A stretch of DNA of 64,000 nucleotides from an uncultured Verrucomicrobiae bacterium (GCA_963813025.1 CAWEXO010000011.1:32001-96000); one strand, 5' to 3'. Positions 24,075 through 52,631 are shown, counted from the stretch's first letter. The notes: a model not told the origin generated them from the sequence alone. A program made the numbers and translations.

Positions 24075-24260
24075 TTGTGGCGGCAGGGCGAAAAATTTGG
24101 AGAATGTCTCGTAACATCCGCTGACCCACGACCGGTAGGGCGAAAATTCACTCGAGCGCCAGCGAGAACTTGTTTGAGCCGTCTTGGAGGGGTGGCACAC
24201 CCCTTATGTCCGGCTCAAACGAGTCCTCGCTAAGGCTCGGATAAATTTTCGCCCTACCGG
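24075..24260. repeat. Family B composite repeat; intact 129-bp REPIN-like unit at 24132-24260 with CCGGTAGGGCGAAAATT termini
   Basis: Terminal IRs 24132-24148 and 24244-24260; the upstream ~55 bp is shared with 39884-39930. Confidence 0.88.
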
Positions 24261-39789: not shown

Positions 39790-40148
39790 TTCCAGGGCTT
39801 GTCGGACTTTGGAAATCTGCGGCAGCCACCCAAGCGATTGGTCGCCCGAGCGGTTAGAGATCGTCTCAGAATGCCGCACTGTCTTGTGGCTGTAGGGCGA
39901 AAATTTAGAGAATGTCTCGCAACATCCCGAAATCGGTAGGGCGAGAATTCATCTGAGCCTTCGGCGAAGACTCGTTCGAGCCGGGCGCTGCGGCAGGTCA
40001 CACTGAAGACGGCTCAAACAAGTTCTCGCTAAGGCTCGAATAAATTTTCGCCCTACCGGCGCAGGACCAAAGACGCTTTGGGACATGTCTCGAACCTTAG
40101 CTCGATTGCGCGAGCTACAGATTGGCCAAAGTCCGACAGACCCTGGAA
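39790..40148. repeat. Nested repeat: outer IR (39790-39812/40126-40148) enclosing a family B unit (39934-40058)
   Basis: ttccagggcttgtcggactttgg vs ccaaagtccgacagaccctggaa; inner cggtagggcgagaatt...aattttcgccctaccg. Confidence 0.82.
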
Positions 40149-40164
40149 GACGTTCTATTGGTCT

Positions 40165-41280
40165 TCAAGGGAGATTTTGCGCAAATTGGTTGCAATTAAT
40201 TGGTTGGAATTGAAGGACCCAAGAACCGTGTTTGATTTGGTTGCGTTGGTGGAACTCGGGATCATCGGGGGTGCGCTCTAGCCACATTTTGTAGATGATG
40301 TTGAGCCAACGCTGTCCCAGAGAGCGGATGGCGGTGGCATGGGAGTGGTCTTTGGCGCGGTGGGCTTGGTAGTAGGTCCGGGGCCCAGGGACAGCGCCTC
40401 AGACTATGTTGGCTAAACAGATGGATGGCGTGGCGCAGGAACTTGTCACAAGCCCAGCGCTGATGGCATTGGCGATGTTTGCCAGAGATTTTGGTGACCG
40501 GCGCCGTGCCGGCCAAGCACTGGAGACTTTGCGCTCCGCCCTCGAAGCGTTGGCGATCATCGCCGATCTGGGCTAACAAGCGGGGAGCCAGCTTGGGGCC
40601 CGCGCCCGGTAAAGAGCCAAAAAGCTCGTGATCGGGATGGGAGCGAAAAGTTCTTCGATCCGTTGGCGGTATTCGGCCAGCCGATCTTCTAAGGCAAAAA
40701 GCATTTTGAGCAAGCTCAGCGCCAGCAGGCTTTTAGCCTTGGTCGCCGGCTTGCTGCCACAGAACTGGGGTGGCATGGGCAAAGAGTTCCATCCGGCGGG
40801 GGCCGCTTTCGGTACGCCAGCGCCGATGGCTGTGCAGGAATTTTTGCCACTGCCGCGGGCCGGCCTGGGCCAGCAGTTGGGGCGTGGGGAAACGCTGCAA
40901 AAACATCCAGGCTGCAAGGGCACTCCAATCCTCAAAGGCTTCCAGAGCGCTCGGATAGTACTCGGCCAAGGCATGCCGGAGTTGATTGACAAAGGCGGTG
41001 CGCTGTTCAATCAAACTGACCTCATCGCGACACAATAAGCGCAGCTCTTTAATCAGGGGATCCTCCGGCCAAAGCGCCTTCCAGTGCTGACCCTCCATCC
41101 GCAGGGCGTCGGCAAAACTCCAGGCATCGAGCCGGTCGTCTTTAACCCCGCTGGGCGCCTTGCGTTGGCGGTAAGCTTGTGCGCTTTTAGGGTTGAGCGG
41201 ATAAACCTTCATCCCGGCTTCCAATAACTGCTCGACGGCCGCGCCTTGGCTGGTCTCGATCGCAAAAGGGATCGAACCGG
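40165..41280 (-). pseudogene. Degenerate IS110-family transposase (different element from the two intact copies)
   Basis: YPLNPKS, GVKDDRLDA, LPGAGPKLAPRLL, AGTAPVTKISG, WARTYY..RSLGQRW spread across several frames; 5' end lost at the repeat at 41281. Confidence 0.88.
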
Positions 41281-44165: not shown

Positions 44166-44310
44166 GAACAGCCTGGAGAATGAATGTTCATTACTTTTAT
44201 TGCAAATGTTTTATACATTGTATGTACGCGTTTTAACGTGACGTGGAGCAACATTCGGCAGACCTAGGGCCGGTAGGGCAGTATCTGAGCAGGTCTGGCA
44301 AGGGAAAAAG

Positions 44311-45585
44311 TTAAAGTTTTTCACCGATTGGTGAGTGGCGTTTTTTGAGGACTTGGAGGTAGCGCTCTTCGTCATAAGGGGTGCGGTCCTGCCAGAGCCG
44401 GAAGATGACGCGGATCCATTTAAAGGCCAAGGCGCGCACGGCAGTGTGGTGGGACTTACCGCGGGCCATTTGCTCTTGATAATAGAGCTTGGCCCATTGG
44501 GAATAAGGAATGGAATGAGCCGCGAATTCGTGGAAGCTCTGGCACAGGAATTTGGAGCGAAAGCGCCGCCGCTGGACGCTTTTGGTTTGCCCACTGCGCA
44601 CTTGGACCGGAGCGATTCCGCTTTTTTTCTGTACCTCCAGGGCTTCGGCAAAAGCCTGCCGATTGGAGCCAAAAGCCACCAACAAGCGCGGGGCTAATTG
44701 CGGGCCGGCTCCGGGCAGACTTTCAAAAATGTGCCGATCGGGATGTTTGGCAAACAGAGTGTGGATGGCTTTGTCAAAAGCCTTGATGGAATCTCGCAGC
44801 GGCAACAATTGACTGACCAAACACTTGCAACTCAGCACGGAGGGCTCCAGCAGAGAACGATCCTCGGTGACGGTTTGGGCCCGAGCGATCTTTTCCAGCC
44901 GCTCCTCAATCAAGCTTTGGCTCCGGCTGTGGTGTTGATAGAAAAAGGAGCGCAGGGTCTGGGACTTGGCTTTTTTTAAACTCTGCAGGGTCGGCCAGCG
45001 TTTCAAAAAATGTAGTGCCAGGGTCGTGTCCAGATCGTCGAGGACCTCCAGGGCCAGCGGATAGTAGACTTTGAGTAAGCTGGTGAGTTGGTTTTCGCAC
45101 ACCACGGAGGCCTCGACGGCTTTGCGTCGGTGCTGACCGAGCAAATCCAGTTCCCGCACTACCGGCTCCGGGGGTTGATAAAGCCGGAGCCGATCCCGAT
45201 GGTGATCAACGAGCTCTTCGATCAATTGGCTGTCGAGGGGGTCATCCTTGGCGCCACTGGTAAAGAAGACCTTGCGGTATTCGCTTAAACTCAAAGGATT
45301 GAGCGGATAGAGGTCGATCCAGTCTCCCTGGGTGCGAAGCATTTCAAAGAGTGCTCCCCGATTTTGTTCAAAACCAATGGCCACCCGCCCCTGCGGACCA
45401 GCCAAGCTTTTGAGCTCTTCGAGCCAGGTCCGAACCGAAACGGGATCGGCGCCCAGCTGGAATGTCCGGCATCCTCCCTCCGGACCAGAGCGTTGACAGA
45501 CAGCGTGTTCTTTATCAGCCCAATCGATTCCCACGCTGACCATATAATGGGGATCTGGGACCGGAAACGGATTTGATCGGTTCAT
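44311..45585 (-). CDS. IS110-family DEDD recombinase/transposase
   Basis: GIDW, FEQ, KDDPLD RuvC-like DEDD; LPGAGP, GIAPVQVRSG (catalytic Ser) C-domain; AGGAG RBS. Confidence 0.95.
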   Translation of the reverse strand: MNRSNPFPVPDPHYMVSVGIDWADKEHAVCQRSGPEGGCRTFQLGADPVSVRTWLEELKSLAGPQGRVAIGFEQNRGALFEMLRTQGDWIDLYPLNPLSLSEYRKVFFTSGAKDDPLDSQLIEELVDHHRDRLRLYQPPEPVVRELDLLGQHRRKAVEASVVCENQLTSLLKVYYPLALEVLDDLDTTLALHFLKRWPTLQSLKKAKSQTLRSFFYQHHSRSQSLIEERLEKIARAQTVTEDRSLLEPSVLSCKCLVSQLLPLRDSIKAFDKAIHTLFAKHPDRHIFESLPGAGPQLAPRLLVAFGSNRQAFAEALEVQKKSGIAPVQVRSGQTKSVQRRRFRSKFLCQSFHEFAAHSIPYSQWAKLYYQEQMARGKSHHTAVRALAFKWIRVIFRLWQDRTPYDEERYLQVLKKRHSPIGEKL

Positions 45586-45618
45586 GCTTGCTCCTTTTTT
45601 CTGGTTTTACCCAGCGCG

Positions 45619-45951
45619 AAAAAAGCCGCTTGGCTTTGGCCGTCCGAAATCCGTATAGTTAAGTCGTCGAAGTGTGAAGTGCTCGACCTCAACTAGAGTA
45701 TTCGTTGTGACGAATCAAAGCGCGACCGGCTGGCTCGAAACTCTGCCCTAAAGATCTCGCGGACCCGAAAATCCTATTCGTAGCCAGCCGGCGCGTCCTT
45801 CTTCGCGTGGGCAGCGCGGGATTTTGCCCGACTGCCCTTGGCAATGAAAACCCTTTCTTTTTTCCAAAGCTTTCTTTTCTCCGGGCGGAGTTATTCACAA
45901 GCTGGAGCTCCGACCGGTAGGGCCTCCGACCACAGCTTGCTGAATAACTCC
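45619..45951 (-). ncRNA. Predicted bridge RNA of IS110 copy 1
   Basis: Target-binding loop 45720-45795 with guides at 45766-45772 and 45745-45750; donor-binding loop with guides at 45697-45701 and 45653-45658; terminator-like hairpin 45619-45637; RNA ends inferred. Confidence 0.8.
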
Positions 45952-46408
45952 GGACTTGCTATACGGACTTGCTATACGAAAATTCATTCGAGCCTTGAAC
46001 TTGTTTGAGCCGGGGGTGCAAGTGGCAGCCTGGGTCGTTCCGTCACCGGATTCGCGCCCACGATAGCCCGGAAGCAAGGTACCAATATATGTCGCGAACC
46101 CGGTAAGGGCCGGCTTGAGCGACGCTGTGGCTCATTGGCCATTCCAAGGCGAGGTGACCCCATTTGCTGATTGGTGGTGACGACAAATTCACGGAGATAA
46201 TCTCGAAACCGCCGATCGCCGGATGCGAGCCTTAGCGAAAGCTTATTTGAGGCGTCCCAATTGTGGCGATTCCAATTTCAGATCCCCGAATTCGGTGCCG
46301 TACGACAAAGTTTCCAAGATTGGTCGACATCAATTCATCGGGCGAACGCTTCGCCAGATGATATAAAGTCCAAAACGCCGGGCAGCCTCGAACAGTGGAG
46401 TATCCGGC

Positions 46409-46975
46409 ATGCAAGCGTACGATCTACTTCATCCAGACCAGGCCACACCGTTCGAGGGGAGAGATGTTTTCGACCGGCGAGGCAAAAAGATCGGAGTTGT
46501 GGCGGCTCACTGGTTCAATCCGAGTACCGACCAAGTTGAGTTCCTCGGTGTTCGGCCAGGTCTACTGTTTGGCGGTTGCCATTTGGTTCCGGCACGGAGC
46601 GCATCAATCGATCCAGCCGACGACCGCGTCCACCTCGGCGTGGACGAAGAGATTGTCCTGAAGGCGCCGACTGCCATCCCGCACCAAGGTTTGGCTGAGG
46701 TTGAAAAAGAGGAAGTAAATGCCTATTACCACGAGTTTGTGCCCGTCGAGCGAGTGACTGATATCGCGGAAGTCCGTCCCGAAGAGGCGCTGAAGCCGCC
46801 ACCAGTGACAACCCCACCTCCGGGTAAGCTGGAAAACCAGTTTATTCCCAGCGAGCATACCGCCGTTGAAGAAGGGCTGCCGGCAGATGAGCTGACGGAG
46901 GAACGCCTCGAAAGCGGCCCGCAACCCGTGAAAGAACCGAACCCCAATGATCAACAGATTACCAAAAATTCTTAG
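46409..46975 (+). CDS. PRC-barrel domain protein
   Basis: G.DVFD..GKKIG.V motif, LVPA, AP, YY; GGAG RBS. Confidence 0.75.
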   Translation: MQAYDLLHPDQATPFEGRDVFDRRGKKIGVVAAHWFNPSTDQVEFLGVRPGLLFGGCHLVPARSASIDPADDRVHLGVDEEIVLKAPTAIPHQGLAEVEKEEVNAYYHEFVPVERVTDIAEVRPEEALKPPPVTTPPPGKLENQFIPSEHTAVEEGLPADELTEERLESGPQPVKEPNPNDQQITKNS

Positions 46976-47312
46976 CGTCCTGCTCCTCCTGTTCGGCACG
47001 GGCCTGGCGGTGGCTGCGTTCGAGTTGTCCATCCCAACCGTGATCGCGCAAACCACTCGGCATAGCCATCGAGCCACTCGGATCACCCAAAAACAAGCTG
47101 AACAAATCGCTCTCAGCAAAGTTCCCGGAGGCAAGATTCGAAGTTCCGAGCTGACCGGCGCCGGCCGGCAGCGCTTTTGGGCGGTGTTCGTGCTGAAACC
47201 GAACTCGAAAAACGCGAAGGAAATTCACGTTGACGCGCGATCCGGCCAAGTGCTGAAGTCGCAAACCGAAAAGCCGGAGGACCAGGCAGAAGAACCCGCG
47301 AAGACTCGCTAA
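46947..47312 (+). CDS. PepSY domain secreted protein
   Basis: Signal peptide; ITQKQAEQIALSKVPGG; EIHVDARSGQVL. Confidence 0.8.
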   Translation: MINRLPKILSVLLLLFGTGLAVAAFELSIPTVIAQTTRHSHRATRITQKQAEQIALSKVPGGKIRSSELTGAGRQRFWAVFVLKPNSKNAKEIHVDARSGQVLKSQTEKPEDQAEEPAKTR

Positions 47313-47356
47313 ACGGATAGCCAATAGCCGGATAGCCGATAGCCCCGGATTTGCTG

Positions 47357-48367
47357 ATGAGGTTTGTGGATTATGGATCCGGTGGCGGGCCGGACGCGAT
47401 GGTCCTGGCCGAAATGCCTGTACCTAAGCCGCAAGCAGGGCAGGTGTTAATCGAGGTGGCGTTCGCGGGGGTCAACCGACCGGACACTTTTCAGCGTGCC
47501 GGAAGCTATCCGCCGCCACCAGGAGCGTCGCCGATCCTTGGTCTGGAGGTATCCGGGAAGGTCGTGGACAAAGGTTCCCAGGTGACCTCATGGGACTTCG
47601 GGGACCAAGTCTGCGCACTGGTCGCTGGCGGCGGCTATGCGGAGTTTTGCGTCGCCGACGCCAGGCACTGCCTTCCGGTTCCTGCGGGCCTGAACTTAGC
47701 GGAGGCAGCGGCGCTTCCGGAAAACCTGTTTACGGTTTGGACCAACCTGGTTGATCGGGGCCGCTTGGCGCTGGAAGAAACGGTGCTGATTCATGGCGGC
47801 TCAAGCGGCATCGGATACCAGGCAATTCAATTGTCCAAAAACCGCGGAGCCAAGGTCTTCGCTACCGTGGGCACCCCGGAAAAAGCCAGGTTCTGCCGCG
47901 ACCTCGGCGCCGATTTACTGATCAATTACCAATCCGAAGACTTTGTGCAGGAAACCATGCGCGCGACGGATAACGAGGGCGTCGATATCGTGCTCGACAT
48001 GGTTGGTGGAGATTACATCCGGCGAAATATCCAGATCCTGAAGCTGGAAGGTCGGCTGGTGCAAATCGCGTTTCTCAAGGGCAGCATGGTCGCCGGCCTG
48101 GATTTCCGGCCAATCATGACTCGGCGCTTGACGATAACCGGGTCGACCCTTCGGCCGTTACCGGCGGAACGAAAGGCGGCCATCGCGTCCAATCTGCGGC
48201 AGCACGTCTGGCCGCTCCTGGAGCAAGGCAAGATCCGGGTTTGGATCGATCACGAATTTCCTCTGACACAGGTACAGGAAGCCCATCGTCTGATGGAGAG
48301 TGGCCAACACATGGGGAAAATCGTGCTCAGGGTGGGATGGGGTCAGTGCCAGTGCCAGTGTCGGTAG
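47357..48367 (+). CDS. NAD(P)H-quinone oxidoreductase (zeta-crystallin/PIG3 family)
   Basis: AGVNRPD, GGGYAE, HGGSSGIG, ITGSTLR, HMGKIVL. Confidence 0.92.
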   Translation: MRFVDYGSGGGPDAMVLAEMPVPKPQAGQVLIEVAFAGVNRPDTFQRAGSYPPPPGASPILGLEVSGKVVDKGSQVTSWDFGDQVCALVAGGGYAEFCVADARHCLPVPAGLNLAEAAALPENLFTVWTNLVDRGRLALEETVLIHGGSSGIGYQAIQLSKNRGAKVFATVGTPEKARFCRDLGADLLINYQSEDFVQETMRATDNEGVDIVLDMVGGDYIRRNIQILKLEGRLVQIAFLKGSMVAGLDFRPIMTRRLTITGSTLRPLPAERKAAIASNLRQHVWPLLEQGKIRVWIDHEFPLTQVQEAHRLMESGQHMGKIVLRVGWGQCQCQCR

Positions 48368-48495
48368 GGCGAGAATTTATTCGAGCCTTCGGCGAAGACT
48401 CCTTCGAGCCTGGCGCAGGAGTTGCCACCCGCTCCAGGCGGCTCCGCCTTCGCCAAGGCTATGGCGGACACGTTAAACGGGTTTTCGCCTACCGG
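48362..48495. repeat. Family B repeat copy
   Basis: cggtagggcgagaatttattcgagcc...ttttcgcctaccgg. Confidence 0.8.
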
Positions 48496-48882
48496 CGCAG
48501 GACCATGGCAGTGGCCCCTGATAATCGCTTGACAAGCCGATTTTTATGGTGCTTTGTAGGGGTTCTGCCAAATTTGTGGCGATTTGCGTCGATTTCTAGG
48601 AGAAATCTGCCAGTCTGGGGCGAACTAGCAGGGGGATGGGGATGGCAGAGTGCGTAACCCCCAGACCTGCTGCCGGCTAACAGTCCCGGGGTGCGGCAGC
48701 GGGAGTGCTGTTGCGGCGGCCGTGCACGGGGAAGGGTGGCGGAGGATATTTTAGAAAAATACGTTGAACGCTGCATTGAGCAACGGTGTCAAAGCACAGG
48801 TTGCTTAAGGTAGTTAACCTTTTTGGGTGGGAAACGACGGGATTTCCCAGAAAACAACTGGTCGGTCTACAACAATACACGT

Positions 48883-49737
48883 ATGGCAGGTGAAGATTCA
48901 GATACGGGCATCAAGATTTACCTTCGGGAAATCGGGCAGATTGCACTGCTGACTCCCCAAGAGGAGATTGAGCTGGCCGCACGAATCAAGAAGGGCGATC
49001 GCGAAGCGCGCGCTCTGATGATCAAGGCTAATCTCCGTTTGGTCGTTAAAATAGCCCACGACTACGCAAATTTGGGGTTGCCTCTGCTGGACCTTATCTC
49101 AGAGGGCAATATCGGCCTGATGAAGGCGGTCGAGCGGTTTGACCCGGCAAAAGGTGGTAAACTTAGCACCTACGCCGCCTGGTGGATTAAACAATCCATC
49201 AAACGAGCCTTGGCAAATCAAAGTAAAACGATTCGGCTCCCGGTGCATTTGGTCGATAAGATCTCGAAAATGCGGCGCGTGTCGTTGCAGATGAGCGAGG
49301 AACTCGGACGCGAACCGACCGATGAGGAGCTGGCCGAAGAAATCGGTATCTCCAGCGGAAAAGTTTCCCAGCTTAAGACGGTCTCGATCCGTCCAGCTTC
49401 CTTGGATGCACCGATCAGTGACGATGATTCGACTGAATTTGGTGAAATCGTCGGAGACGAAGAGGCCCAAACGCCTTTCGAACTCTTGCGAGACAAGAAT
49501 CTCCGCGACGAGGTCAGCGATTTGCTCGAAGTGCTCGACGACCGCGAACGGAAGATCATCTTCCAGCGGTTCGGGCTGGATGGCGGCAAGCCAAAGACCT
49601 TGGAGGAAGTAGGAAAAAAATTTGGCGTGACCCGGGAGAGAATCCGGCAGCTGCAAAATATTGCCTTGGCCAAATTGCGTCGGGCTCTTGGAAAAAAAGA
49701 GAGACCGATCGATGTTTTGCAAGAAGCAATGTCGTAA
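48883..49737 (+). CDS. RNA polymerase sigma70 factor, RpoD/RpoS-like (regions 1.2-4, no region 1.1)
   Basis: YLREIG..LLT.EE, NLRLVVKIA, GNIGLMKAVERFD, STYAAWWIKQ, TLEEVG..GVTRERIRQ. Confidence 0.93.
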   Translation: MAGEDSDTGIKIYLREIGQIALLTPQEEIELAARIKKGDREARALMIKANLRLVVKIAHDYANLGLPLLDLISEGNIGLMKAVERFDPAKGGKLSTYAAWWIKQSIKRALANQSKTIRLPVHLVDKISKMRRVSLQMSEELGREPTDEELAEEIGISSGKVSQLKTVSIRPASLDAPISDDDSTEFGEIVGDEEAQTPFELLRDKNLRDEVSDLLEVLDDRERKIIFQRFGLDGGKPKTLEEVGKKFGVTRERIRQLQNIALAKLRRALGKKERPIDVLQEAMS

Positions 49738-49767
49738 ACTGGTTGACTCCTTGTCGAGCGAGTTTCC

Positions 49768-49797
49768 AAAAGGGCCGTCCTGCTGGGCGGCCTTTTT
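49768..49797 (+). terminator. Intrinsic terminator
   Basis: aaaagggccgtcc-tgct-gggcggccttttt hairpin with T tract. Confidence 0.7.
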
Positions 49798-49841
49798 CTT
49801 GAGGAAAGGCAACGCCGAGTTATTCTTCCCTCCACACTTCT

Positions 49842-50576
49842 ATGAGAACTGGTAATCCGATTTTGACCGATTCGACCTTCGAAGCCGGCGGGCGCGCAAC
49901 CGAAACGATGACTTTAAGCGGGGTGATCAACCGCTCGTTGATTTTGCTGTTGCTCGTAGTTTTGTCCTCCATCGCGACTTGGAACGTGGCTGGCGCGCAC
50001 CCTTCGCTGGCCTATACCGCGTCGATCTTCGGCGCACTCGGGGGCCTGGTCGTGGGCGTGATTACGTCATTCAAGAAATCCTGGGCTGCAGTGACCTCCC
50101 CAGTCTACGCGGTGTTGCAAGGTTTCTTTATAGGCGCCATCTCCTGGTCGCTCGAGAGGCGGTTCCCTGGAATCGCGGTCCAATCGGTTTGCCTCACTTT
50201 TGCGGTGATGTTCGCTTTACTTGGTGCTTATCAGACCGGTTTGATTCGGCCGTCGCAAACCTTTCGTTCTATCATCGTTGGCGCGACGGGGGGAATTCTC
50301 GTGGTCTATTTGGTCAACATGGTTGCGGGTTTATTCTTTCACCGTCCCCTTTCTTTCATCACGGGAACGGGCCCGCTGGCTATCGGGTTTTCGGTCCTGG
50401 TGGTCGGCATTGCCGCGCTCAATCTCGTCCTCGATTTCGACTTTATTGCGACTGGCGTGGCGAATGGAGCGCCGAAAAGCCTCGAGTGGTTTGCCGCTTT
50501 CGGACTGACGGTTACGCTCGTTTGGCTCTACATCGAGATTTTGCGTTTGCTGGCCAAAATCCGCAGCAACGATTAG
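49842..50576 (+). CDS. Bax inhibitor-1/YccA family membrane protein
   Basis: MRTGNP, MT..G, seven TM segments, LVLDFDFI..G..GAPK..EW..AFGL.VTLVWLYIEILRLL. Confidence 0.85.
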   Translation: MRTGNPILTDSTFEAGGRATETMTLSGVINRSLILLLLVVLSSIATWNVAGAHPSLAYTASIFGALGGLVVGVITSFKKSWAAVTSPVYAVLQGFFIGAISWSLERRFPGIAVQSVCLTFAVMFALLGAYQTGLIRPSQTFRSIIVGATGGILVVYLVNMVAGLFFHRPLSFITGTGPLAIGFSVLVVGIAALNLVLDFDFIATGVANGAPKSLEWFAAFGLTVTLVWLYIEILRLLAKIRSND

Positions 50577-50876
50577 CGTGCATCGCTGATCGGGCCTAAG
50601 GGCTCTGTCGGACTCTGATCCTGTCCCGAAGGGGTCTGAGATGGTCTGTCGAGTCTTTTGGGGTGGAGTTATTCACTGCGCGAAGGGTAGGGCGATCCGC
50701 CTTGGCGGACGAGCGCCAGGCGCGAACTTGTTTGAGCCGTCCTGGGCGCGGCATATCCCAGGGCAGGGCTGGAACGAGTCTTCGCTGAAGGACTCAGATG
50801 AAGAGATTATGTCATAACGTGTCTCTGACCCTGTTGGGGTAGGGCAGTATCTGAGCAGGTCTGGCAAGGGAAAAAG

Positions 50877-52151
50877 TTAAAGTTTTTCACCGATTGGTGA
50901 GTGGCGTTTTTTGAGGACTTGGAGGTAGCGCTCTTCGTCATAAGGGGTGCGGTCCTGCCAGAGCCGGAAGATGACGCGGATCCATTTAAAGGCCAAGGCG
51001 CGCACGGCAGTGTGGTGGGACTTACCGCGGGCCATTTGCTCTTGATAATAGAGCTTGGCCCATTGGGAATAAGGAATGGAATGAGCCGCGAATTCGTGGA
51101 AGCTCTGGCACAGGAATTTGGAGCGAAAGCGCCGCCGCTGGACGCTTTTGGTTTGCCCACTGCGCACTTGGACCGGAGCGATTCCGCTTTTTTTCTGTAC
51201 CTCCAGGGCTTGGGCAAAAGCCTGCCGATTGGAGCCAAAAGCCACCAACAAGCGCGGGGCTAATTGCGGGCCGGCTCCGGGCAGACTTTCAAAAATGTGC
51301 CGATCGGGATGTTTGGCAAACAGAGTGTGGATGGCTTTGTCAAAAGCCTTGATGGAATCTCGCAGCGGCAACAATTGACTGACCAAACACTTGCAACTCA
51401 GCACGGAGGGCTCCAGCAGAGAACGATCCTCGGTGACGGTTTGGGCCCGAGCGATCTTTTCCAGCCGCTCCTCAATCAAGCTTTGGCTCCGGCTGTGGTG
51501 TTGATAGAAAAAGGAGCGCAGGGTCTGGGACTTGGCTTTTTTTAAACTCTGCAGGGTCGGCCAGCGTTTCAAAAAATGTAGTGCCAGGGTCGTGTCCAGA
51601 TCGTCGAGGACCTCCAGGGCCAGCGGATAGTAGACTTTGAGTAAGCTGGTGAGTTGGTTTTCGCACACCACGGAGGCCTCGACGGCTTTGCGTCGGTGCT
51701 GACCGAGCAAATCCAGTTCCCGCACTACCGGCTCCGGGGGTTGATAAAGCCGGAGCCGATCCCGATGGTGATCAACGAGCTCTTCGATCAATTGGCTGTC
51801 GAGGGGGTCATCCTTGGCGCCACTAGTAAAGAAGACCTTGCGGTATTCGCTTAAACTCAAAGGATTGAGCGGATAGAGGTCGATCCAGTCTCCCTGGGTG
51901 CGAAGCATTTCAAAGAGTGCTCCCCGATTTTGTTCAAAACCAATGGCCACCCGCCCCTGCGGACCAGCCAAGCTTTTGAGCTCTTCGAGCCAGGTCCGAA
52001 CCGAAACGGGATCGGCGCCCAGCTGGAATGTCCGGCATCCTCCCTCCGGACCAGAGCGTTGACAGACAGCGTGTTCTTTATCAGCCCAATCGATTCCCAC
52101 GCTGACCATATAATGGGGATCTGGGACCGGAAACGGATTTGATCGGTTCAT
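50877..52151 (-). CDS. IS110-family DEDD recombinase/transposase
   Basis: Same as copy 1 except E/Q at AFA[E/Q]ALE. Confidence 0.95.
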   Translation of the reverse strand: MNRSNPFPVPDPHYMVSVGIDWADKEHAVCQRSGPEGGCRTFQLGADPVSVRTWLEELKSLAGPQGRVAIGFEQNRGALFEMLRTQGDWIDLYPLNPLSLSEYRKVFFTSGAKDDPLDSQLIEELVDHHRDRLRLYQPPEPVVRELDLLGQHRRKAVEASVVCENQLTSLLKVYYPLALEVLDDLDTTLALHFLKRWPTLQSLKKAKSQTLRSFFYQHHSRSQSLIEERLEKIARAQTVTEDRSLLEPSVLSCKCLVSQLLPLRDSIKAFDKAIHTLFAKHPDRHIFESLPGAGPQLAPRLLVAFGSNRQAFAQALEVQKKSGIAPVQVRSGQTKSVQRRRFRSKFLCQSFHEFAAHSIPYSQWAKLYYQEQMARGKSHHTAVRALAFKWIRVIFRLWQDRTPYDEERYLQVLKKRHSPIGEKL

Positions 52152-52184
52152 GCTTGCTCCTTTTTTCTGGTTTTACCCAGCGCG

Positions 52185-52517
52185 AAAAAAGCCGCTTGGC
52201 TTTGGCCGTCCGAAATCCGTATAGTTAAGTCGTCGAAGTGTGAAGTGCTCGACCTCAACTAGAGTATTCGTTGTGACGAATCAAAGCGCGACCGGCTGGC
52301 TCGAAACTCTGCCCTAAAGATCTCGCGGACCCGAAAATCCTATTCGTAGCCAGCCGGCGCGTCCTTCTTCGCGTGGGCAGCGCGGGATTTTGCCCGACTG
52401 CCCTTGGCAATGAAAACCCTTTCTTTTTTCCAAAGCTTTCTTTTCTCCGGGCGGAGTTATTCACAAGCTGGAGCTCCGACCGGTAGGGCCTCCGACCACA
52501 GCTTGCTGAATAACTCC
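52185..52517 (-). ncRNA. Predicted bridge RNA of IS110 copy 2
   Basis: Target-binding loop 52286-52361, donor-binding loop 52206-52280, terminator-like hairpin 52185-52203; RNA ends inferred. Confidence 0.8.
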
Positions 52518-52631
52518 GGACTTGCTATACGAAAATTTAGCCGAGCTTCAGCGAGGACTCGTTTGAGCCGGACGCCGCGGTTGCCACCATCCAACCCGGC
52601 TCAAACAAGAAATCAAAGTCCGACACGTCCC

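Follow-up and report, generated by a model that had tools for sequence, protein, structure and literature searches.

Insertion of an IS110-type element at the ends of a long palindromic repeat in a Verrucomicrobiae genome, with a predicted bridge RNA as the probable selector of the site

What leads two copies of one insertion sequence (IS) to break a repeated motif at the same base? This question is raised by a 64-kb stretch of DNA from an uncultured Verrucomicrobiae bacterium (GCA_963813025.1 CAWEXO010000011.1:32001-96000; hereafter the window), which corresponds to G000:C11:32001-96000 in the source genome G000, a 4.42-Mb assembly of 16 contigs. The window contains two copies of an IS110-type element, here called IS-A, the orientation of which is the window minus strand. 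Inspection of the sequence had suggested that both copies interrupt the same GTAG-headed repeat, similar to repetitive extragenic palindromic (REP) sequences, at the identical base (the original prediction); this is what we observed, and the junctions read as written there. Based on the identity of the insertion sites, the recombinase family, a conserved RNA fold, guide matches and the covariation of guides and flanks, we consider it very probable that IS-A is active or was active recently and that a bridge RNA from its own 5' non-coding arm picks the insertion site.

The insertion site of IS-A

When the window was slid against itself, two copies of IS-A were located at a spacing of 6566 bp, with identity starting at 44272 and 50838 and stopping after ...GCTATAC at 45977 (copy 1) and 52530 (copy 2). 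Copy 1 (44280..45977, minus strand, ends accurate to 1 nt) has 1698 bp, made up of 1685 bp plus 13 bp that are duplicated in tandem at the left end; copy 2 (50846..52530, minus strand) has 1685 bp and lacks the duplication. Apart from this duplication of GGACTTGCTATAC, which is present in copy 1 only, the two copies differ at 2 substitutions (44646 and 45259). The junctions of copy 1 read ccGGTAGGGC, element, GAAAATTCATTCGAGCC and those of copy 2 ggGGTAGGGC, element, GAAAATTTAGCCGAGC, hence both copies split GGTAGGGC|GAAAATT at the same base. The repeat terminus GGTAGGGC (44272..44279 at copy 1 and 50838..50845 at copy 2, plus strand) adjoins the right end and is, in IS orientation, the right target GCCCTACC; the inner repeat terminus GAAAATT (45978..45984 and 52531..52537, plus strand) adjoins the left end and comprises the left target, AATTTT, together with the first core base, C. 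A single base, C on the plus strand, could be assigned to either side, and the junction can therefore be placed to 1 nt. Within this ambiguity, removal of IS-A restores the target site, and there is neither a multi-base target duplication nor a long terminal inverted repeat. Outside the flanks of 8 and 7 nt the DNA is unlike between the two copies, which identifies them as independent insertions and excludes a segmental duplication.

In IS orientation, the full target of IS-A is 5'-RAATTTT-CG-CCCTACC-3', the final 15 nt of a palindromic repeat of about 124 bp; as one uninterrupted sequence it reads GGTAGGGCGAAAATT, and empty sites were counted with the 14-mer GTAGGGCGAAAATT. Genome-wide, blastn detected 10 full copies of IS-A and one 215-nt left-end fragment. 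All 10 full copies were flanked by GGTAGGGC (GGTAGGGT in one, on contig C4) and GAAAATT, and the fragment retained the GAAAATT flank only. No IS-A copy away from the motif was found by blastn in the whole genome, so the claim of a single kind of site, which copies at unrelated places would have contradicted, stands for all 11 copies. These 11 occupied sites compare with 129 perfect GTAGGGCGAAAATT sites that are empty, an occupancy of about 8% (11/140) of the canonical sites. Open frames of at least 200 codons contain 14 of the 129 empty sites compared to 77% of the genome positions, in agreement with the suggestion that the element uses an abundant, mostly intergenic repeat as its target.

Several empty targets had also been expected in the window itself. 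Four intact GTAGGGCGAAAATT sites were found there, at 24135-24148 (+), 24244-24257 (-), 39892-39905 (+) and 40043-40056 (-); the sites listed earlier all exist, with positions accurate to 1-2 nt. Allowing up to 2 mismatches, the window has 7 matches to GTAGGGCGAAAATT compared to 0.5 in shuffled sequences, and 0 of 100 shuffles reached 7. The first two sites form the two ends of a complete empty palindromic repeat (24134..24258). The empty target at 39892..39905 (+) is the paralogue of the site that IS-A fills at G000:C16:83670, and a further empty target lies at 40043..40056 (-). A direct before/after comparison for an IS-A insertion is available at 39800-40143: the composite repeat broken by the C16 copy precisely between GGTAGGGC and GAAAATT has an uninterrupted paralogue there, with 92-98% identity. 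The same-genus genome G001, considered as a source of an empty allele, has flanking genes that are 84-88% identical and an intergenic region without the repeat and without the IS; lacking the repeat too, it is uninformative in this respect.

Termini of a variant type exist as well. Two GAGAATT termini are located in the window at 39936..39949 (+) and 48364..48377 (+), and the genome has 47 GAGAATT variants, 14 AAAACT variants and others. IS-A was never found at GAGAATT (0/47, compared to 11/140 at canonical sites; one-sided Fisher p = 0.037), a statistically marginal difference that is only suggestive of avoidance.

The repeat carries the GTAG-type head GGTAGGGC, and at 27 loci the 14-mer is present on both strands about 109 nt apart. 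The consensus of these 27 complete copies is a near-perfect palindrome of 124 bp, GGTAGGGCGAAAATTtATTCGAGC..AGCGAGAACTTGTTTGAGCCG..loop..CGGCTCAAACAAGTTCTCGCT..GCTCGAATAAATTTTCGCCCTACC, with a predicted DNA hairpin energy of -60 kcal/mol; half copies and composite arrangements exist too. The term REP-like is thus apt for the terminus, whereas the repeating unit is one long palindrome and no classical short REP. As a unit it resembles a REPIN (REP doublet forming a hairpin) or a MITE (miniature inverted-repeat transposable element). A link to REP-associated tyrosine transposases (RAYTs) was considered and dropped, because no Y1 transposase adjoins the motif: the genome has three Y1_Tnp matches, two of which score 68 and 76 bits on a REP-associated transposase model with a cut-off of 80, and GGTAGGGC does not occur within 2.5 kb of any of these three Y1/RAYT-like genes. 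The 12-mer GTAGGGCGAAAA is abundant in same-family relatives, with 119 copies in G007 and 103 in G008. There was no IS-A match in G007 and one weak partial match in G008 (E 3.9e-4), which indicates that the repeat is more widespread than IS-A.

Recombinase, predicted bridge RNA and covariation of guides with flanks

Both window copies encode a recombinase of 424 amino acids (44311..45585 and 50877..52151, minus strand) with the domains DEDD_Tnp_IS110 and Transposase_20. The N-terminal RuvC-like DEDD domain PF01548 is covered completely (E 1.8e-20, residues 18-176, profile positions 1-155 of 155), the C-terminal domain PF02371 matches with E 1.3e-8, and the protein scores 148.9 bits on NF033542, 'IS110 family RNA-guided transposase', with a cut-off of 140. 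In weak alignments of the C-terminal domain to the ISCro4 and IS621 transposase chains, S331 in the motif VRSG stands opposite the serine of YESG in ISCro4 and, counted manually, would be the counterpart of S241 in IS621. The non-coding arms, 379 nt upstream of the gene and 31 nt downstream, have the layout of the IS110 group; in IS1111 elements the non-coding region lies downstream of the gene. By its domains and layout, IS-A is classified as an IS110-type insertion sequence with a DEDD/Ser recombinase. In the genome search the recombinase was intact at 10/10 sites, as a 431-aa open frame without internal stop. The closest relatives found have proteins of 62-72% identity and come from contigs labelled Verrucomicrobiota and Acidobacteriota and from soil-metagenome contigs; one relative comes from another genome in the family of G000.

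From 13 orthologous upstream arms, RNAalifold predicted a 5' stem-loop, a small hairpin and two long stems around the guide segments, the first enclosing ACGAAUAGGAUUUUCGGG...UUUAGGGCAGAG and the second ..AAUACUCU...ACUAUACGGAU. Since the orthologues are close, this structure draws mainly on energy and conservation. In copy 2, the 5' stem-loop, with GCCCUACCGG in its loop, is located at 52452..52518 (-), equivalent to 45886-45952 (-) in copy 1. The predicted target-binding stem-loop (52287..52360, minus strand) contains the left guide GGAUUUUCG (52340-52332) and the right guide UAGGGCA (52316-52310); the predicted donor-binding stem-loop (52198..52286, minus strand) contains AAUACUC (52268-52262) and CUAUACG (52224-52218).

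For IS621 it has been described that the left guide pairs with the bottom strand and the right guide with the top strand, both spanning the core (PMC11208160). The candidate left guide of IS-A, GGAUUUUCG, is identical to RAATTTTCG at 7-8 of 9 positions, and the other 1-2 are G.T wobbles; since its sense is that of the left target plus CG, its pairing partner would be the bottom strand. A GAGAATT terminus changes one position of this match, as had been anticipated, and the result would be an rU.dG wobble instead of the hard mismatch that had been expected. UAGGGCA pairs with the right target and is invariant in 20/20 orthologous arms in which it was readable, and GCCCTACC forms the right flank in 17 of the 21 right-end junctions read. 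In the donor loop, CUAUACG is complementary to CG+TATAG of the left junction at 7/7 positions.

The 5' stem-loop sequence GCCCUACCGG is a copy of the right target and also complementary to the right guide UAGGGC. As a conserved guide it was rejected, being absent from 12/12 orthologous arms with the same right target. By our own arithmetic a 10-nt match is expected with a chance of about 5%, and for 8 nt about one match is expected; the resemblance could be due to chance.

Among the relatives, guide and flank change together on the left side. Altogether, 18 left junctions were compared, 16 of them from relatives. The left-guide classes GGAUUUU, AGGUUUU and GGAGYCU pair with the left-flank classes RAATTTT, AGGTTTT and GGAGSYT, and cognate pairs of left guide and flank are identical at 8.2 of 9 positions on average (n=18), compared to 5.1 of 9 for non-cognate pairs (n=148). 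Relatives with the guide AGGUUUUCG adjoin AGGTTTTCG, with a 9/9 match in 10 of the 13 junctions of this class and 7, 8 and 5 matching positions in L002, L041 and L051, respectively; relatives with GGAGYCUC- adjoin GGAGSYTCG. Neither the right guide nor the right flank GCCCTACC varies; they are consistent with pairing and yield no covariation signal. We regard the covariation of left guide and left flank as the decisive evidence that the site is chosen by the RNA, as far as can be concluded from sequence comparison.

This evidence also bears on the alternatives. The recombinase protein might recognise a DNA hairpin or cruciform of the 124-bp palindrome, with the RNA matches being of minor importance at most. 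The target does lie at the base of this very stable structure, and the target stem-loop of ISPpu10 has been described as an additional specificity determinant (10.64898/2026.03.19.712850). Nevertheless, we consider this explanation improbable: the left guide and the left flank covary over three classes, some of the filled sites belong to half repeats or composites whose inner sequence differs, and the structure published for ISPpu10 adds to RNA pairing and does not substitute for it. Even less probable is a spread of the copies by homologous recombination or gene conversion between IS-bearing repeats in place of site-specific transposition. Repeats offer homology on both sides, and the copies on C14, C8 and C16 have similar left flanks; on the other hand, every pair of copies differs on at least one side beyond 8-40 nt, relatives in other phyla occupy the same GCCCTACC junction in unrelated contexts, and the recombinase frame is intact at all 10 sites searched. 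Loose insertion followed by selective survival of copies in a harmless repeat would fit the mostly intergenic position of the repeat and is just as improbable, since survival bias cannot yield the same base at 11/11 sites, many other intergenic repeats and spacers are available, and copy 1 lies only 115 nt upstream of a gene start.

Core dinucleotides, element ends and signs of activity

If the bridge RNA picks the site, the course of an insertion can be outlined by analogy with IS621, from which transcription of the RNA, the circle and the chemistry of strand exchange are taken over for IS-A. The element would exit as a circle in which the junction of right and left end (RE-LE) rebuilds a promoter; the RNA would bridge circle and target, and the DEDD/Ser recombinase would swap strands beside the core. 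Read by eye, a candidate -35 hexamer TTGCCA is located 16 nt from the right end and a candidate -10 hexamer TATAGC begins with base 2 of the left end, so that the circle would carry -35 TTGCCA/17 nt/-10 TATAGC.

In IS orientation, the left junction reads AATTTT-CG-TATAGC and the right junction GATAC-TG-CCCTACC. The dinucleotide was CG in 18/18 left junctions and TG in 21/21 right junctions, and empty targets have CG. In IS621 the top strand is cut 3' of the CT core, and each left part takes its own core into the product (PMC11208158); an exchange of top strands 3' of the core likewise predicts the pattern of CG on the left and TG on the right. It has further been described that handshake guides favour the exchanged state (PMC11208158; for the principle see also PMC13626964). 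The right target guide of IS-A ends with CA and the right donor guide with CG, thus the top strands after exchange would suit both right guides better than those before exchange, which appears to resemble the published handshake principle. Two preprints argue, in the parts considered here, for top-strand-only transfer and copy-out, and the fixed CG/TG pattern is compatible with both.

These features permit a more far-reaching and clearly tentative idea: the IS-A clade may use non-identical cores, the core-reading bases of the two right guides being complementary to the top strands after the exchange and not before, with a handshake that extends into the core and drives insertion thermodynamically; the CG/TG pattern would then be a natural tracer of top-strand-only transfer, and the clade would be specialised on GGTAGGGC-headed repeats in contigs derived from Verrucomicrobiota, Acidobacteriota and soil. 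Non-identical cores in IS110 elements were not met in a narrow literature search on core dinucleotides and heteroduplexes, and we do not claim novelty for them.

Several observations weigh against bridge-RNA-guided insertion by IS-A. The recombinase is distant from that of IS621 (E 7e-6, in the C-terminal domain only), and mechanistic details may differ given this remote similarity. The target core CG and the donor core TG share a single G, whereas IS621 has CT in both. Compensatory changes in the predicted fold are few (4 of 93 pairs), the non-coding arm matched no Rfam family above chance level (the hit to mir-223 at the 5' hairpin has E 0.065), and the agreement of AAUACUC, the putative left donor guide, with the right end of IS-A extends over AUACU only, with a mismatch at the second core base. 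In the orthologue L051, the left guide fits its own flank poorly (5/9). Finally, neither an RNA nor a circle nor an excision product was seen; joints of this kind were absent from the contigs of three soil-metagenome runs, and contigs cannot reveal rare forms.

Recent activity is indicated by four IS-A copies that are identical at all 38 variable alignment columns, the 13-bp duplication aside. One soil-metagenome run has the stretch as contigs, and there the IS is collapsed into contigs without the duplication, with neither a circle junction nor a joint across the IS. IS-A has two haplotypes, with 3 and 7 copies, and about 20 of the substitutions between them are packed into about 190 bp of the recombinase gene, a clustering more in line with a recombination patch than with even divergence.

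The 13-bp duplication consists of two tandem copies of the left end (GTATAGCAAGTCC on the minus strand; 45952..45977, with the units 45952-45964 and 45965-45977) and is absent from copy 2. It was present in 3 of the 11 IS-A copies, the others being at G000:C13:92657-92682 and C1:207973-207998, and it was seen in both sequence variants; one duplicated copy equals three unduplicated copies at all variable columns. The duplicated segment covers exactly the interval between two CG dinucleotides, and its junction TCCGTATAG is a perfect complement of the donor-loop sequence CUAUACGGA. Scars of 13 nt from excision at the inner duplicated end were not found in the genome, where all 14 matches to the 13-mer, with 1 mismatch allowed, belong to left ends of IS-A, and inspection by eye revealed no guide match that would explain the duplication as insertion into an internal CG.

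Individual copies show further deviations. The C16 copy (G000:C16:83670-85354) has lost one base near the right end, AGTATCGAG for AGTATCTGAG on the plus strand, in the part that the donor loop would read, and may be immobile. The C4 copy (G000:C4:2772-4457) has GGTAGGGT for GGTAGGGC at the right-end junction, which is TA rather than TG in IS orientation; this points either to mismatch repair in the core or to a C>T change after the insertion. Among the relatives, the metagenome contig L051 combines the guide AGGUUUUCG with the flank AGAGCCTCG, and at its extreme left end it is similar to another guide class, so that a chimera or an off-target insertion may be represented here.

Other elements, gene context and relation to known systems

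IS-A is not alone on this repeat. A second, unrelated IS110-family element, IS-B, of about 1.34 kb with an open reading frame (ORF) of 385 aa and 22-24% protein identity to IS-A, has seven full copies outside the window, at G000:C14:164605-165943 (L120), C14:356953, C8:82847, C11:733721, C11:604816, C13:237809 and C4:45461. In 7/7 of these copies the insertion site of IS-B lies in the repeat terminus that IS-A uses too, but 5 bp farther outward and within the GTAG head (..TCGCC-CT|IS|ACCGG), with the core CT as in IS621; 2 of the 7 are in GAGAATT-variant termini. In the left arm of IS-B, CUCGCCC and CCGGUAG are located inside one stem-loop. A partial third IS110-family element (40143-41280), with a recombinase remnant at 40952-41248 (-), follows directly after the composite repeat 39800-40143 and is 83% identical to G000:C13:99193-100334. 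Genome-wide there are 40 DEDD_Tnp_IS110 matches of several types.

Concerning the gene context, copy 2 has a BaxI-like gene on one side and a Fur-family gene on the other, which are convergent and have their 3' ends towards it. Copy 1 is found upstream of a divergent Mg-chelatase/ComM-like gene, at the 115 nt mentioned above, and also upstream of a PRC-barrel gene. The view of the repeat as a safe landing site, proposed originally, fits copy 2 and can be retained as a tendency only, because copy 1 sits near a gene start.

Insertion of IS110-family elements into REPs has long been on record, for IS621 (Choi et al. 2003), in the survey of Tobes and Pareja (2006), and for ISPpu9 and ISPpu10. That IS621 targets REP sequences, as noted in the original prediction, is stated in PMC11208160, and its bridge-RNA mechanism was described by Durrant et al. 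2024 (PMC11208160) and Hiraizumi et al. 2024 (PMC11208158). Both IS621 of E. coli and IS-A have a recombinase of the DEDD plus serine type. In both, the 5' non-coding arm is long and comprises a 5' stem-loop together with one loop for target binding and one for donor binding, which are predicted in the case of IS-A. The left guide, putative in IS-A like the right one, corresponds in sense to the left target and the core, and the right guide is the complement of the core and the right target; the -35 and -10 hexamers are divided between right and left ends; and insertion takes place at the end with the GTAG head of a palindromic repeat that is abundant between genes, many sites of which remain unfilled. 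Differences concern the RNA, with 177 nt in IS621 and about twice that length, ~330 nt, predicted in IS-A; the crossover, which is within the GTAG head in IS621 and 5 bp inside the head in IS-A; the cores, CT and CT compared to CG (target) and TG (donor); the repeat, a REP of ~35 bp compared to the 124-bp palindrome; and the recombinases, which show the remote similarity noted above.

The situation of IS-A and IS-B is similar to that of ISPpu9 and ISPpu10 in Pseudomonas putida KT2440, where, according to the descriptions in PMC12288879 and 10.64898/2026.03.19.712850, two IS110-family elements in one genome likewise use one repeat and paired or palindromic arrangements are preferred. Circles of ISPpu10 are described to form a hybrid promoter, to which the split hexamers of IS-A, read by eye, are comparable, and the left end of ISPpu9 has a sequence like the target palindrome, which may be compared with GCCCUACCGG in the 5' stem-loop of IS-A. 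Unlike the ISPpu9/ISPpu10 pair as described there, IS-A and IS-B are only 22-24% identical and insert 5 bp apart rather than at the same position; moreover, their host has a soil Verrucomicrobiota-type genome, and they are known here from sequence alone. The seekRNA elements of the IS1111 group share with IS-A an RNA-guided DEDD transposase and a strict choice of site and have subterminal inverted repeats, which IS110-type elements lack (Siddiquee et al. 2024, PMC11187229). By comparison with these systems, IS-A is best described as a case of bridge-RNA-guided insertion as for IS621, ISPpu9 and ISPpu10, and as a distant relative with a putatively longer RNA, another crossover position and non-identical cores.

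The general picture of IS110 biology is unchanged by these results, as repeat targeting has been in print since 2003-2006 and the mechanism was explained in 2024. With 10 full copies, a left-end fragment and 129 unused sites, IS-A represents a clean natural case of probable bridge-RNA targeting outside Proteobacteria. The 13-bp left-end duplication may bear on the choice of element ends, and the one-base overlap of CG and TG, together with the presence of IS-B on the same repeat end, could inform on the strictness of the core in bridge recombinases. The soil relatives, in which guide and flank change together, constitute a small natural series of re-programming.

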